Shown one piece after another: positions 9,198 through 14,328 of a stretch of DNA of 29,603 nucleotides. A model generated the notes under the pieces. The model was given only the letters and a program-made list of their open reading frames with translations, searched no databases and was not told the DNA's origin. The position numbers and the translations under genes were made by a program. The stretch comes from Planctomycetota bacterium (GTDB lineage: Bacteria; Planctomycetota; UBA8108): positions 1 to 29,603 of the forward strand of contig DODI01000617.1 in NCBI GenBank assembly GCA_003509045.1, in the 5' to 3' direction. Each line of letters opens with the position of its first letter. Within the stretch, counting starts at the first letter, position 1.

Positions 9198-9306
9198 AGG
9201 GCCAGTCTACCCGATTGGTGAGGATGGTTTTGTCGCCTCTTGTCGAGGCTTGTATGTTCCGCTAAAGGTGGGTTAGAACCTCTGTTTAGACGAAAGTAGA
9301 GAGCGA

Positions 9307-10113
9307 ATGGAACAGGAAGAGCAAACCCGCTACATAGTCTATGATACCGAATCCGTGGTCGATGGAGAACTTCTGGGTCGAGTGCTCTATCGAGAAGAGG
9401 GGCTCACCGGCGAGGCGGCGATCGAGCGCTATCTCGAGGAACAGGGGGACCCGGACGCGTTTATACCCGTGGCTTTCCAGGTTCCCGTGGCCATCTCCGT
9501 AGCGAGGGTGTCGAGAGATTATCGATTGCTGGATATCTCCTGCCTGGATGATCCCAGCTTTGAGCCGATGGAAATGACCAGGCTCTTCTGGGCAGGTGTG
9601 GAGCATTACAGGGCCGCGGCACTGGTTGACTTCAACGGAAGGGGCTTCGATATTCCGCTGATGACGCTCAACGCCTTTCGGTTTGGAATCTCCTGCCCGG
9701 CCTATTTTGCCGACGACCGATTCGGTCACAGGTATCGCTATACCGACAAGCACATCGATCTCATGGACTGGCTGACCGAGTACGGAGCCTCGCGTATTCG
9801 GGGAGGTCTGAACCTGCTCGCCAAGATGCTCGGCAAGCCCGGCAAGATGGGTACCAGCGGCGCCCAGGTGGCAAGTCTTTACGCAGAGGGAAAGCTTCGC
9901 GAGATCAACGATTATTGCATGCATGATGTGCTCGACACCTATTTCGTCTTCCTGCGCTCCAGGGTGCTTACCGGGGAGCTGCCGCTGGAGCGTGAGCAGG
10001 CTCTCGTTGATGAGGTGCGCGACTGGCTTGTCCAGCGTTCGGACGAGATCGAGGCTCTGCGGGTGTATCTCGACAATTTCGGGGATTGGGATCCCACTCC
10101 ATTCGCCTCCTGA
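9307..10113 (+). CDS. Stand-alone 3'-5' exonuclease related to the PolB proofreading domain (DEDDy)
   Basis: ExoI YDTES, ExoII DFNGRGFD, HIDLMD and ExoIII YCMHDVLDT. Confidence 0.85.
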   Translation: MEQEEQTRYIVYDTESVVDGELLGRVLYREEGLTGEAAIERYLEEQGDPDAFIPVAFQVPVAISVARVSRDYRLLDISCLDDPSFEPMEMTRLFWAGVEHYRAAALVDFNGRGFDIPLMTLNAFRFGISCPAYFADDRFGHRYRYTDKHIDLMDWLTEYGASRIRGGLNLLAKMLGKPGKMGTSGAQVASLYAEGKLREINDYCMHDVLDTYFVFLRSRVLTGELPLEREQALVDEVRDWLVQRSDEIEALRVYLDNFGDWDPTPFAS

Positions 10114-10121
10114 GATTCGGC

Positions 10122-11321
10122 TCAGGTCTTGTCGCAGAGCGCCGTGACCCCGGGCAGGTCGCCGCCCTCGAGGAATTTAAGCGAGGCGCCTCCGCCAGTA
10201 GAGACGTGGGAGACGTCATCGCTCAGGCCGGCGGCCTTGATCGCGGCGGCGGAGTCGCCGCCGCCGACAATGGTCGTCGCGCCGCGCCTGGTCGCCTCGG
10301 CCAGGGCGGTTGCGACCGAGTTGGTGCCGCGCGCGAAGGTCGGCATCTCGAAGACTCCCATCGGGCCGTTCCAGATCACTGTCCCCGCCTCCTTGACGAT
10401 GTCGCTGTAGAGCTCGATGGTTCTCGGCCCGATGTCGAGCCCTTCGAGCTCTGCCGGGATCTCGCCGGCCGGGCAGACCGTTGTGGCGGCATCGTTATCG
10501 AAGGAGTCTGCCGCAAGGATGTCGAGCGGAAGAACCAGGCGGTCGGGGCCGAGAGCTTCAGCTGCCGCGAGGATTCTTTCTGCGTCTGCGATTGAATTTT
10601 CTTCGAGAAGCGACTTTCCGATCTCCAGGCCCATGGCCTTGAAGATAGTGTAGGACATTCCACCTCCGACGATCAGCTGGTCCACCTTGTCGAGAAGATT
10701 TTCGATGACCTTGATCTTACCCGAGACCTTGGAGCCTCCCATTACCGCGACGAGGGGGCGGCGGGGGTCCTGTAGCGCGCCAGCCAGGAGGTCGAGCTCT
10801 TTCCTGAGAAGGTAGCCCATGGCGCATTGGTCGGTCCTCTCGGCCACCCCGGTGATCGAGGCGTGCGAGCGATGCGATGTGCCGAAGGCATCGTTTATAT
10901 AGATCTCCCCCAGGCTTGCCAGCGCATCGGCGAAGGCGGGTTCGTTGGCCGTCTCCCCGGCGTGAAAGCGCAGGTTCTCCAGCAGCAGCACACCGCCATT
11001 CGCAAGACCCTGGAGCCTTGCCTGCGCCTCCGGGCCAATACAGTCATTCGCGAGAGGCACATCGCGCCGCAGCAGCTGGCCCAGGTGCTGGGCCACAGGC
11101 TGCAGGCTGTACTCGTCCACTCGTTCTCCCCCCGGACGGCCCAGGTGGGACATGAGAATGGTGCGTGCTCCGTTCTCCATGAGCCATTGGATGGTAGGGA
11201 GGCACTCCCGGATGCGGCGATCGTCGGTGATCTCTCCATCCTGGAGAGGAACATTGAAGTCGGCTCGCACGAGGACGCGCTTGCCGCGCACATCGAGGTC
11301 GGTAACGAAGAGTTTCTGCAT
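10122..11321 (-). CDS. pgk: Phosphoglycerate kinase
   Basis: RADFNVP, SHLGRP, LLENLRF, NDAFGTSHR, GGSKVSGK, WNGPMGVFE, GGGDS and STGGGASL. Confidence 0.99.
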   Translation of the reverse strand: MQKLFVTDLDVRGKRVLVRADFNVPLQDGEITDDRRIRECLPTIQWLMENGARTILMSHLGRPGGERVDEYSLQPVAQHLGQLLRRDVPLANDCIGPEAQARLQGLANGGVLLLENLRFHAGETANEPAFADALASLGEIYINDAFGTSHRSHASITGVAERTDQCAMGYLLRKELDLLAGALQDPRRPLVAVMGGSKVSGKIKVIENLLDKVDQLIVGGGMSYTIFKAMGLEIGKSLLEENSIADAERILAAAEALGPDRLVLPLDILAADSFDNDAATTVCPAGEIPAELEGLDIGPRTIELYSDIVKEAGTVIWNGPMGVFEMPTFARGTNSVATALAEATRRGATTIVGGGDSAAAIKAAGLSDDVSHVSTGGGASLKFLEGGDLPGVTALCDKT

Positions 11322-11372
11322 GTTGGGTCCTGACTGGTGGTTTTCTGTAGGCGCTGAATCTGCCGGCGCAAC

Positions 11373-11401
11373 ACTCTACGCAGATTGCCGGTTTCCGTCA
11401 A
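11373..11401 (-). promoter_or_regulatory. sigma70-type promoter of pgk
   Basis: Minus strand TTGACG-17 bp-TAGAGT, about 50 nt upstream of the ATG; SD AGGA lies before the start. Confidence 0.7.
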
Positions 11402-11633
11402 TTGTTGCAATGCCTGGCGGCAGTTTCCCGTCTGTGTATTTTTTTGAGAGTTGATGGAATCTCGGTAATCACACCTCTACGATTGAGTTGTCGGGCAGAC
11501 GGTCTTTTTCAGACTCAAGAAGAGGGGGGAGTGGTGATGATCTTTGCCTGGGGGCAGGTATTAAGACGCGATCTTCCCGGCAGCTCAGCGGACGCCACCG
11601 CGGCCTGCTGGAATGCCCGGGACACATCCTCTT

Positions 11634-11854
11634 GCTCTGCCCGGGTCTTTCCCCGCGTTTTGCAGCGCGGGCAGGCGCCGGTTCAATTCGAAATAAACGG
11701 TCTTCGGAGGAACCTGCTCGGAGGGGTCATCTGTCCACAGCCAGGGCCTGTTCGTTCCCGACAGTTGCCCGACTAGGTTCGGCGGGCCTGGTGTTGTATC
11801 AGAGGTCCCTTGATCCCCGACTGGGGTGAAAACGGGGAAAGGTTCCGGGAGAGC
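11634..11854 (+). ncRNA. Candidate structured non-coding RNA (~220 nt), possibly 6S RNA-like; family not established
   Basis: Hand-folded helices. Closing stem 11634-11661/11829-11854 (about 23 bp with bulges). CGGGCAGG 11668-75/CCUGCUCG 11713-20. cUUCGg hairpin 11701-08. Long hairpin 11721-11750/11782-11811. CCCC-GACU-GGGG 11815-26. The non-WC pairs in these helices are G-U on the + strand. Confidence 0.55.
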
Positions 11855-11892
11855 TCCAGGGGCGAAAGCTTCTGTGGGCTCTCCCTCTTTTT
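11847..11892 (+). terminator. Rho-independent terminator for a + strand transcript
   Basis: GGGAGAGCUC-CAGGGGC-GAAA-GCUUCUG-U-GGGCUCUCCC then UCUUUUU, with a GNRA loop. No + strand CDS is supported upstream, which implies an RNA gene. Confidence 0.75.
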
Positions 11893-11934
11893 GCCTGTGG
11901 CTCAAGGGGGCTGGCCTGGAGATCTGACGGAGGT

Positions 11935-12762
11935 TCAGGGCTGGGCGCTTGCGGGGATGATGTTCTCCCGTTCGGCGACCTCGAGCAGATGGTCGACAGC
12001 CTCCCGGCCTTCTCTTCCCAGGTTGATGGTGAAATCGTTTACATAGAGTCCGATATGCGCTGCCGTTACCGCGTCGTCCATTTCCTGTGCGTAATGTCGA
12101 ACATAGTCTCGTGAATCCTCAGGGTGGTTCGTGGCATGGAGAACGCTTCTCGAGAGGGCATCATCAAAGGCCGCTATGGTCTCGCTGCCAATGTCGAGGC
12201 GGGCGATGATTCCGCCCAGAGGGATCGGGTAACCGTGGGTCTCTTCCCACCAGTCACCCAGGTCTGCCAGCTTTCGCAGCCCCAGCTCACCGTAGGTGAA
12301 ACGGCTCTCGTGAATGATCAGGCCCGCGTCCACCTCCCCTGTCTTGACGGCGTCCATGATCCGGTCAAAGGTCATCTCTATCAGGGAGCCAGCGGGAACC
12401 CGGGGGGCGAAGAGGCGCAGCAGCAGGTTTGCACTGGTTAGCTTTCCGGGGATGGCAATCTTCGCGGTGGAGAGATCGCGTTCTTCGTCTCCTTCGCGAA
12501 CGACGATAAGCGGGCCGCAGCCGCGGCCGAGGGCGGCCCCCGCCTGCAGGAGCTTGTAGGTGTCCCGAAGATGACCGTAGGCATGAAAGGAGATTTTTGT
12601 GATCTCCAGCTCTCCGTTCCGCGCCATAACGTTGAGGGTCTCGACATCTTCAAAAACCGGCTCCAGGTGGAAGTCTTCGAGCTCGACGAATCCCTCAAGA
12701 AGGGCGTGAAAGATAAACGTATCGTTCGGGCAGGGGGAGAGGCCCACTCTGAGGGTCTTCAT
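11935..12762 (-). CDS. mqnD: 1,4-dihydroxy-6-naphthoate synthase (futalosine pathway)
   Basis: MKTLRVGLSPCPNDTFIF, DVETLN, LGRGCGP, IHESRF, DLGDWW, PIPLG and HIGLYVNDF. The start at 12762 gives an ATGA overlap with the mqnB stop. Confidence 0.95.
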   Translation of the reverse strand: MKTLRVGLSPCPNDTFIFHALLEGFVELEDFHLEPVFEDVETLNVMARNGELEITKISFHAYGHLRDTYKLLQAGAALGRGCGPLIVVREGDEERDLSTAKIAIPGKLTSANLLLRLFAPRVPAGSLIEMTFDRIMDAVKTGEVDAGLIIHESRFTYGELGLRKLADLGDWWEETHGYPIPLGGIIARLDIGSETIAAFDDALSRSVLHATNHPEDSRDYVRHYAQEMDDAVTAAHIGLYVNDFTINLGREGREAVDHLLEVAERENIIPASAQP

Positions 12763-13454
12763 GCTTGCGTTCTCTCTCTCTCGATCCATACGCCCGCGGC
12801 CGCGGCTGCGGCTTCGCAGGCCTCGGCGATCTTCCAGCTCTCCCGGTTTCGATCGCCTGTCATATTCGAGATGCCGCGTATCTCGCTGAAGCGTACGCGC
12901 TGTCTCCAGGCCACAAGAGCTGCGGCGGCCCCCTCCATGCTTTCAGCGAGCGGGTTCCAGCGTTCCTCTGCCCTCCGAGAGGCCGCATCTGTTCCGCTGC
13001 CGAGGGATACCGTGCAGAAGAGGCCCGCTTCGATACGCGATTGTTGGCCGAGAGAAGACCTTATCTCCTGGATCGTTTCGGCTGTGGGGAAGTCGACAGG
13101 GACCTCGTTGAAGATCAGCTCTCCATCTCGCGAGGCCTGGGGCAGCTCGAGATCTCTCATCGACAGGAAGCCTTCGGGTGTCTCGACGCCTTCATCCGCG
13201 AAGATCTCGACGTTCGCTATGGCGACGTCTGCGATTCCAAGGCCGGAGCCCGGGTAGGCTCCGGCACAGCCGAGCTGGATGATCCAGTCAGGGCGCAGCT
13301 GTCTTGTCAGCTCAAGCGTGGAGATGGCTGCGCTGACCTTTCCCGCTCCGGTCGCAGCGAAGGAGATGCTTTCCGCTGAGTCACCAAGGAGCTTTCTTGC
13401 AGGGGACAGCTCGCCTTCGGTCGCGGCTATGATCAGGATGGTCTGCGGTAACAT
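12759..13454 (-). CDS. mqnB: Futalosine hydrolase
   Basis: IIAATEGE, TGAGKVSAA, GCAGAYPGSGL, AESMEGAA and EIRGISNMTGDRNRESWKI. It is coupled to mqnD. Confidence 0.9.
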   Translation of the reverse strand: MLPQTILIIAATEGELSPARKLLGDSAESISFAATGAGKVSAAISTLELTRQLRPDWIIQLGCAGAYPGSGLGIADVAIANVEIFADEGVETPEGFLSMRDLELPQASRDGELIFNEVPVDFPTAETIQEIRSSLGQQSRIEAGLFCTVSLGSGTDAASRRAEERWNPLAESMEGAAAALVAWRQRVRFSEIRGISNMTGDRNRESWKIAEACEAAAAAAGVWIERERTQA

Positions 13455-13473: not shown

Positions 13474-14163
13474 TCATTGCCCCGGAATGGTCAGGTCGCT
13501 CTCCTCTGCCGACTGATCTTCTTCACCGCTGGTTGGGGGAGTTTCTTCCGTGAGCTCTTCGAGTGGGGAATAGTCCAGGTCTGCTTCAAAATCAAGCTGG
13601 TCGAAATAGTCGCTGAGCTCTTGCAGGTATGATTGGCTTTCTTTGCCGGGTTCGCCAGCCGCATGATTCTGGGCGCAGCTTGCCAGCGCCCCCAGAACCT
13701 TCTTTTTTTGTTCCGGCTCAAAGCCGTTCTTCTCGATGTTGGAGTATCTCTGGCTCCGGCTGAGCAGCTTTCTGATGAAACCAGCAAGATCGTTCTCATC
13801 TCCCGTCGGGCCGTCCGGGTCGGCGGCGGTCGTTTTCAATATCCTGGCGATTTCCTGGTTGGCCAGGCCGCCGTGCCTGGAGCACCACCAGTAGAGATCT
13901 GCCTGGACCATGAACGCGAAACTCTGGGCTTCCTCTGAGTGGAAGCTGGCGCTGGTGCGATAGAGGAACTCTTTCCCGGCTGATTGCGCCTTCTGGTTCC
14001 TTCTTTCCTGCTGGTAGAACTCTGACTGGAGATGTACGCAGTCGGCCGGGCACTGTATTGTCGCGAGCCTGTGGGTCGCGCAGCATTGCGCGCAGATGCC
14101 ATCAGCGAGCGCGGGGCAATAGCGCTTTCCTTTTTTCTGGCCGCAATGAACGCACTTTGCCAT
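13474..14163 (-). CDS. Uncharacterised protein with N-terminal 8-Cys zinc-finger-like domain and acidic tail
   Basis: Start chosen at MAKCVHCG (ATG 14163), supported by an upstream promoter. CVHC-x8-CPA-x5-CAQCC-x9-CPADC. It ends 19 nt before mqnB. Confidence 0.8.
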   Translation of the reverse strand: MAKCVHCGQKKGKRYCPALADGICAQCCATHRLATIQCPADCVHLQSEFYQQERRNQKAQSAGKEFLYRTSASFHSEEAQSFAFMVQADLYWWCSRHGGLANQEIARILKTTAADPDGPTGDENDLAGFIRKLLSRSQRYSNIEKNGFEPEQKKKVLGALASCAQNHAAGEPGKESQSYLQELSDYFDQLDFEADLDYSPLEELTEETPPTSGEEDQSAEESDLTIPGQ

Positions 14164-14197
14164 GGGGGTAGTTCCGGTAAATACTGGGAATTCGCGC

Positions 14198-14226
14198 ATT
14201 GTAGCCTGTTGAGGCTCCAGTCCCAA
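14198..14226 (-). promoter_or_regulatory. sigma70-type promoter for the Zn-finger gene / mqnB / mqnD
   Basis: Minus strand TTGGGA-17 bp-TACAAT, 34 nt upstream of ATG 14163. Confidence 0.55.
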
Positions 14227-14244
14227 CCCTGAAGAGGAGGGGGG

Positions 14245-14274
14245 CTGGCAAATGAGGGCTTCTGCAAATAAAAT
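14245..14274 (+). promoter_or_regulatory. Candidate sigma70-type promoter for the lipoprotein gene
   Basis: CTGGCA-18 bp-TAAAAT, about 55 nt upstream of ATG 14329. Confidence 0.4.
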
Positions 14275-14328
14275 GCAGGCATTGGTATTCGGCGGGCATT
14301 CACGTAACCACAGAAAAGCGGAATTCAA

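Follow-up and report, generated by a model that had tools for sequence, protein, structure and literature searches.

Hfq-independent sRNAs that pair with their targets through C-rich loops are represented by 6C RNA in Actinobacteria and by RsaE/RoxS in Firmicutes. Structured elements may also govern antisense transcription, as in the riboswitch-controlled antisense RNAs that are formed by the B12 riboswitch with AspocR in Listeria and by the S-box antisense RNA in Clostridium acetobutylicum. Weinberg et al. described, in 2010, a number of orphan structured RNA motifs of narrow range, for example, Pseudomon-1 and Pyrobac-1 (PMC2864571). Regulatory RNAs of the Planctomycetota have been described in very small numbers. 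A 2022 review puts the annotated sRNAs of the entire PVC group at 8 (PMC9029176), none of which comes from an uncultured marine lineage. A paper on Thermogutta reports that there is no 6S RNA in that organism (PMC5673643), and the same paper cites Wehner 2014 for the absence of 6S RNA in Pirellula and Rhodopirellula.

Here we describe a locus on a contig of a Planctomycetota bacterium; the whole stretch of DNA that was analyzed, 29,603 nucleotides in length, is referred to below as the window. The source genome is fragmented (632 contigs) and 72% complete. An earlier note, made from this single sequence, had proposed that the space between pgk and mqnD holds an independent, highly structured, unannotated plus-strand RNA that ends in an intrinsic terminator, and the conserved fold and terminator described here bear out that proposal. 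The locus thereby adds to the few described for the phylum a well-supported candidate with defined helices, a defined strand, a terminator, and a probable promoter.

Distribution and gene context

The comparison set comprised 14 distinct gap sequences from about four clades of one genus, with homologues recovered by blastn, by pattern scans, and with a covariance model (R1). The RNA locus was present in 10/10 species of this uncultured marine Planctomycetota genus, always between pgk and mqnD; in one species genome (G001), the contig stops just past the 5' block. Scores of model R1 within the genus ranged from 93 to 194 bits. Outside the genus, the model gave nothing credible in the genomes searched from the order (20), the class (58), and the phylum (150), about 200 others, and blastn returned no homologue. 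The RNA was also absent upstream of pgk in four sister-genus genomes and one order-level genome, viral contigs contained no match to it, and exact-pattern scans of public genomes and metagenomes yielded no genus but this one. A weak R1 match of 19 bits beside an mqnD homologue in a genome of another family (G050) was rejected because it lies across the 3' ends of a convergent gene pair, namely, a DUF2344 gene and an apparent minus-strand ferredoxin gene, the latter judged from its translation. Occurrences of the 5' block motif elsewhere in the class were likewise dismissed as look-alikes in coding regions or repeats, and CCTCTACGATTG, found 3 times in the source genome versus 0.4 expected, was set aside, its other sites having no common context. 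In the same order, the complete genome G018 (9.2 Mb) carries four identical copies of GGTCTACGTTTGGGCCGTCGGGCAG, two per strand (L037, L049, L050, and L051); these are probably part of a repeated element and are seemingly unrelated to the RNA.

The RNA gene is oriented on the plus strand, divergent from pgk and convergent with mqnD (Table 1), and the source genome contains one copy. The earlier claim that pgk is served by a promoter of its own was confirmed, and the TTGACG-17-TAGAGT sequence is unchanged in 13/13 gap sequences of the genus. Two minus-strand open reading frames that flank the pgk-mqn cluster, at 9286-9924 (212 aa) and 13474-14328 (284 aa), had no Pfam or NCBIfam match. On one metagenome contig (L021:155-975), the mqnD homologue aligns as two pieces that join at one base, which suggests either a frameshift or an assembly error.

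Table 1. Features of the pgk-mqnD region (positions in the window) and identities to three distant species of the genus
Feature	Positions	Strand	Description	Identity to G006 / G005 / G007
pgk	10122-11321	-	PF00162, E 2.6e-152	
pgk fourfold-degenerate sites				0.50 / 0.42 / 0.40
pgk-mqnD gap	11322-11934		intergenic	
pgk promoter	11401-11373	-	TTGACG, 17 nt, TAGAGT; consensus scan	
Candidate RNA promoter	11449-11489	+	invariant AGTTGATGG (11449-57) and invariant -10-like TACGAT (11478-83)	
Upstream block	11449-11536			0.74 / 0.75 / 0.73
Conserved 5' segment	11490-11536	+	begins with invariant GUCGGGCAG, ends in purine-rich GAGGGGG; in all 10 species	
Variable (intervening) segment	11537-11686	+	lineage-specific hairpins, many indels, large deletions in some species	0.46 / 0.28 / 0.17
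Core	11687-11846			0.74 / 0.67 / 0.61
P0	11687-92 with 11703-08	+	weak hairpin UUCGAA/UUCGGA, enclosing conserved AAUAAACGGUCUU; RNAalifold	
P1	11709-15 with 11840-46	+	GGAACCU/AGGUUCC, invariant	
P2	11717-20 with 11833-36	+	invariant	
P3a	11721-28 with 11804-11	+	consensus fold	
Internal loop	between P3a and P3b	+	8x6; consensus fold	
P3b	11737-41 with 11793-97	+	consensus fold	
P3c	11744-58 with 11776-89	+	consensus fold	
GUUGCCCGA in P3 apical loop	11764-11772	+	invariant in 14/14 sequences; lies in a loop of roughly 17 nt	
P4	11815-18 with 11823-26	+	CCCC-GACU-GGGG, stem invariant	
Intrinsic terminator	11847-11892	+	stem 11847-11885, then UCUUUUU; conserved, covarying	0.70 / 0.63 / 0.72
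mqnD	11935-12789	-	MqnA/MqnD-family gene (PF02621); family match; futalosine hydrolase gene precedes	

Conservation and coding potential

Identities to the distant species were read against those at the fourfold-degenerate sites of pgk, which served as the neutral yardstick (Table 1). By this measure, the 3' domain is evidently under purifying selection. The segment at 11537-11686 is near-neutral (17-46% identity versus 40-50% at the pgk fourfold sites), and its indels are not multiples of three even between close relatives. The 5' boundary that had been proposed for the RNA, at 11634, falls inside this near-neutral segment and was not confirmed.

In every species, both strands contain long open reading frames, which a GC content of 59% would be expected to produce by chance. 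The frame that opens at ATG 11537 lies behind the SD-like GAGGGGG and could be read as a small protein gene with a structured 3' part, all the more as an SD-like purine run followed after 6-9 nt by ATG, GTG, or TTG occurs in all clades, but this frame is disrupted in 5/13 sequences: a 1-nt indel is present in G000 and in the independent same-lineage assemblies L021 and L022, a separate 1-nt indel is present in L017, and 2 nt are deleted in G008. In G007, the core is open in another frame, and the predicted peptides share little sequence. Moreover, core substitutions per codon position (14/12/15, 18/17/15, and 9/16/7) showed neither periodicity nor a third-position excess, and since they are spread evenly over the codon positions, all six frames are excluded as coding. 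We therefore find a small protein gene scarcely credible. The gap is, to judge from these alignments, free of any conserved coding sequence, as had been claimed from the single sequence, and the RNA is non-coding.

Conserved fold, strand, and terminator

A consensus fold was derived with RNAalifold from 11 sequences. Changes on both sides of a pair, compensatory in nature, were found at nine pairs, all of them in P3 (11 distinct sequences; tally with G007 added), a number that was reached by 0/500 shuffles and compared with 1-6 in slid controls. The covariation check on homologous pgk-mqnD gaps that the earlier note had called for was thus positive for the long hairpin it had described (11721-11811), and the CCCC-GACU-GGGG hairpin (11815-11826) was also recovered, with an invariant stem. 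Because P1, P2, and P4 never vary, covariation neither supports nor contradicts these three helices, and because the sequences represent about four clades of one genus, the covariation that is seen rests on few independent events. The P0 hairpin is paired in 89% of cells, and its changes are one-sided only, with some breaks.

Pairing and folding energy both pointed to the plus strand. With G007 included, 94.7% of core cells were paired on the plus strand versus 79.4% on the minus strand, and the corresponding values for the terminator were 97.7% and 81.6%; the drop on the minus strand arises because 79 core cells and 30 terminator cells are G-U, in agreement with the strand previously read from the wobble pairs. 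Against dinucleotide shuffles, the core plus terminator gave plus-strand z scores of -2.8, -2.2, -1.0, -4.3, and -3.7 in five species and minus-strand scores of 0.0 to -2.7 in the same five, weaker than the plus strand every time. The interval originally proposed (11634-11892) also folded below its shuffles on the plus strand (z = -2.29, versus -1.67 on the minus strand).

The terminator consists of a G+C-rich hairpin directly before a U-run on the plus strand. Its pairing is preserved by compensatory changes at 175:199 (CG to UA) and 179:194 (AU to GC), and the U-run is present in all species; the U-tailed hairpin of the earlier description is therefore conserved and covarying, but the GAAA cap attributed to it is not conserved. 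The 3' end of the RNA is predicted to be set by this element at 11847-11892. On these comparative grounds, 11687-11892 is a structured plus-strand RNA in which a 3' domain (11687-11846) is followed by an intrinsic terminator.

Several features that had been seen in the one sequence turned out to be local to it and its close kin. The closing stem formed by 11634-61 and 11829-54 is complete (23/23) here and in the two nearest relatives, but it is not conserved beyond them: near relatives retain 18-21/23 pairs, with uncompensated changes in the 5' arm, and distant ones retain 5-13/23 or have lost it by deletion. The helix of CGGGCAGG with CCUGCUCG is lost in the same way and clashes with the conserved P1 and P2, and the cUUCGg tetraloop is UUUG or UUAG in other species. 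Because the 5' arm of the closing stem lacks conservation, the competition proposed for this stem and the terminator is peculiar to one lineage and does not characterize the RNA family.

Candidate promoter and probable extent of the transcript

Conservation sets in abruptly at 11449 (AGTTGATGG), about 30 nt upstream of TACGAT (73-75% identity versus 33-38% just upstream). TACGAT is the only plus-strand -10-like hexamer that occupies one alignment column in 14/14 sequences. These features suggest a promoter role for 11449-11489. The accompanying -35 is weak, with TGGAAT at 17 nt (3/6 consensus matches) and an invariant TTGATG 21 nt from the -10. No conserved promoter was found just before the core and no terminator was seen between the 5' block and the core, and these two results, with the conserved block that carries TACGAT upstream, favor a primary transcript of ~400 nt. 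The sequences suggest that it starts near 11490; it would join the 5' block and the 3' domain and is perhaps processed. The size of 220-260 nt given previously is less likely: the conserved unit spans 11687-11892, a further block at 11449-11536 probably supplies the promoter and the 5' end, and ~400 nt is accordingly likelier.

Two pairings that would link distant parts of such a transcript were considered and rejected. For a helix closing the variable segment, between the purine run at 11520-28 and a pyrimidine tract, duplex energies were no better than those of shuffles (fractions of 0.26-0.97). The sequence UGCCCGAC (11766-73), which overlaps GUUGCCCGA of the apical loop, is complementary to GUCGGGCA (11490-97) over 8-10 bp; this pairing is invariant on both sides, shows no covariation, and has an energy not beyond that of shuffles (fraction of 0.22), and the single loop change that affects it, in G007, is uncompensated.

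The two promoter regions have in common a motif in the same absolute orientation, namely, ACAC-TCTACG-CAG-ATTG at 11368-11387 and ACACCTCTACG-ATTG at 11471-11485. Both copies are invariant in the genus, and each overlaps the -10 of its own promoter, on opposite strands. This ACAC(C)TCTACG..ATTG motif may be a regulator site common to both promoters. Between the divergent promoters there is also a terminator-like hairpin with a T-run (11416-11441, plus strand), the sequence of which diverges in distant species. If the shared motif is considered together with the invariance of P1, P2, and P4, stems that consequently provide no RNA-level evidence, the conservation might be ascribed to DNA-level sites (operators, a terminator, or an insulator) with no functional RNA at all. 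We regard this as highly improbable, since compensatory changes preserve the pairings of P3 and the terminator, the G-U asymmetry favors one strand, and an operator would be far shorter than the conserved block, which measures about 200 nt.

Relation to the convergent mqnD gene

Within 11847-11934, no U-tailed hairpin belongs to mqnD itself (stop at 11935, minus strand), and transcription of mqnD may run antisense across the RNA gene towards pgk. The sole hairpin between mqnD and pgk is the plus-strand terminator of the RNA; on the minus strand, GGAACCUUUCCCC comes after it.

This arrangement raises the question of a cis-acting module for convergent transcription, with the RNA serving either as antisense to mqnD read-through or as a regulated terminator whose read-through would enter the mqnD-mqnB operon; the latter form would be similar to the riboswitch-controlled antisense RNAs of Listeria and Clostridium. 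The distance between the terminator and the mqnD stop is 42 nt, the two are convergently arranged in all species, and P1 adjoins the terminator as an aptamer adjoins its expression platform. However, inspection of the alignments yielded no conserved antiterminator pairing; the sole alternative found for mutually exclusive pairing of aptamer and terminator, that of the earlier note, is not conserved, and other candidate pairings are invariant and thus uninformative. On the plus strand, nothing follows but the 3' end of mqnD, a convergent gene, and this arrangement does not fit a riboswitch leader. Moreover, no riboswitch family matched, a range of one genus would be unusual for a riboswitch, and plain antisense action needs no covarying fold. 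A cis-acting role is for these reasons quite unlikely in our estimation.

Search for known RNA families

Rfam 15 gave 0 matches over the whole window at the gathering score. At E<=10, the segment 11250-12000 gave only chance matches to mir-486, ACA64, and a fragment of RNase P, none of them to 6S, and ARAGORN found 0 tRNA or tmRNA genes in 11300-11950. By these searches, the RNA belongs to no family in Rfam 15 and is previously undescribed.

The likeness to 6S RNA that had been suggested earlier merited separate consideration. The Rfam 6S model (RF00013 and related 6S-like families) had no match in the source genome and 20 relatives from the genus, family, order, and class. Given that canonical 6S was not detected in these relatives and is reported absent in Thermogutta, Pirellula, and Rhodopirellula, the 6S niche may be vacant, and the rod built from P1, P2, and P3 does contain an 8x6 internal loop, as might be expected of a divergent 6S or of a 6S-like RNA bound to RNA polymerase through mimicry of an open promoter. 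Nevertheless, relaxing the threshold to E<=10 brought up no 6S match in the gap, there is no conservation of the end-to-end closing stem, the large bulge is only on the 3' side and a two-sided central bubble is missing, the internal loop is small, and the RNA occurs in a single genus, whereas the lack of 6S extends across the phylum. The earlier likeness is accordingly not supported, and we consider a 6S or 6S-like identity very improbable. Similarly remote is the prospect that the RNA is an independently evolved 6S analogue that sequesters RNA polymerase or another global factor in a phylum from which canonical 6S has not been recovered; if this were true, other planctomycete genera would have their own unrelated versions.

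Proposed function

Neither an Hfq gene (PF17209) nor a CsrA gene (PF02599) was found in five genomes of the genus (G000, G002, G003, G004, and G007), four of which are >90% complete. The RNA itself contains no repeated array of GGA loops of the CsrB/RsmZ sponge type. Since the two genes were not found, models of Hfq-dependent action and of a Csr sponge are disfavored.

The explanation that we prefer, and to which as a whole we give roughly even chances, is a stand-alone plus-strand noncoding RNA gene between pgk and mqnD. Transcription would begin near 11490 from a promoter with TACGAT (11478-83) and would produce a primary transcript of ~400 nt in which a freely evolving middle separates the conserved 5' end from the conserved 3' domain. 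The RNA would then act in trans without Hfq, in that the invariant C-rich apical loop GUUGCCCGA, held on a rigid covarying stem, would pair with target RNAs in the manner of 6C RNA and RsaE/RoxS. The combination of an unvarying loop with a stem that covaries marks the loop as a candidate interaction site; trans-acting, Hfq-independent base pairing through the C-rich loop is our best guess at what occurs there, albeit a speculative and tentative one. Against the translation start regions of pgk, mqnD, and mqnB, the loop and the core showed no more complementarity than shuffles did.

Invariant junction nucleotides and invariant P1, P2, and P4 fit a protein- or ligand-binding fold better than a seed-pairing sRNA. 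The RNA might therefore bind or sequester a protein in a manner other than that of 6S, with the three-way junction (P1/P2/P4 and the strands GAU and UGAAAA) as the recognition module. Both paired and unpaired nucleotides of the junction are invariant, with variation limited to P3, where it takes the form of covariation, and the transcript is long and structured in a genus with no Hfq or CsrA gene found; yet the gene context points to no partner protein, and the one-genus range suggests no tie to a widely shared protein. Protein binding by the junction thus appears unlikely to us, albeit likelier than any reading other than base pairing, and base pairing through the apical loop is retained as the working model.

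Comparison with known systems

By its conservation, covariation, and distribution, the RNA is a solid candidate family from a phylum that has been little studied; its restriction to one genus limits its wider importance. In a genus without recognizable Hfq, CsrA, or 6S, RNA-based regulation must work differently from the textbook systems.

The RNA resembles 6S RNA in being stand-alone and highly structured, with a long irregular helix. Unlike in 6S RNA, the conserved fold here has no two-sided central bubble: P2 stacks on P3, their 5' strands being contiguous (0 nt) and their 3' strands about 21 nt apart, hairpin P4 included, and the only two-sided loop measures 8x6 nt. The three-way junction with its 3'-side hairpin and the one-genus range also differ from 6S, and in place of end-to-end pairing, the conserved P1 and P2, which are invariant, close only the 3' domain. 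As in the riboswitch-controlled antisense RNAs, a structured element at this locus precedes a terminator that points towards the 3' end of an operon read in the opposite direction; the locus differs from those RNAs in having no known aptamer and no conserved antiterminator, and synteny within one genus carries little information in this respect. The orphan motifs of Weinberg et al. are similar in being intergenic, found by conservation and covariation, and limited to a narrow taxon, whereas the RNA described here matches no motif in Rfam 15 and its host is an uncultured marine member of the Planctomycetota.

Compared with 6C RNA and RsaE/RoxS, with which it has no sequence or Rfam similarity, the RNA is far larger (the 3' domain measures about 200 nt, the whole perhaps 400 nt), it has a single long loop where they have several short C-rich ones, and its junction is also invariant. 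It is like these sRNAs, however, in having its own terminator, in displaying an invariant C-rich loop sequence on a covarying stem, and in residing in a host without detectable Hfq.
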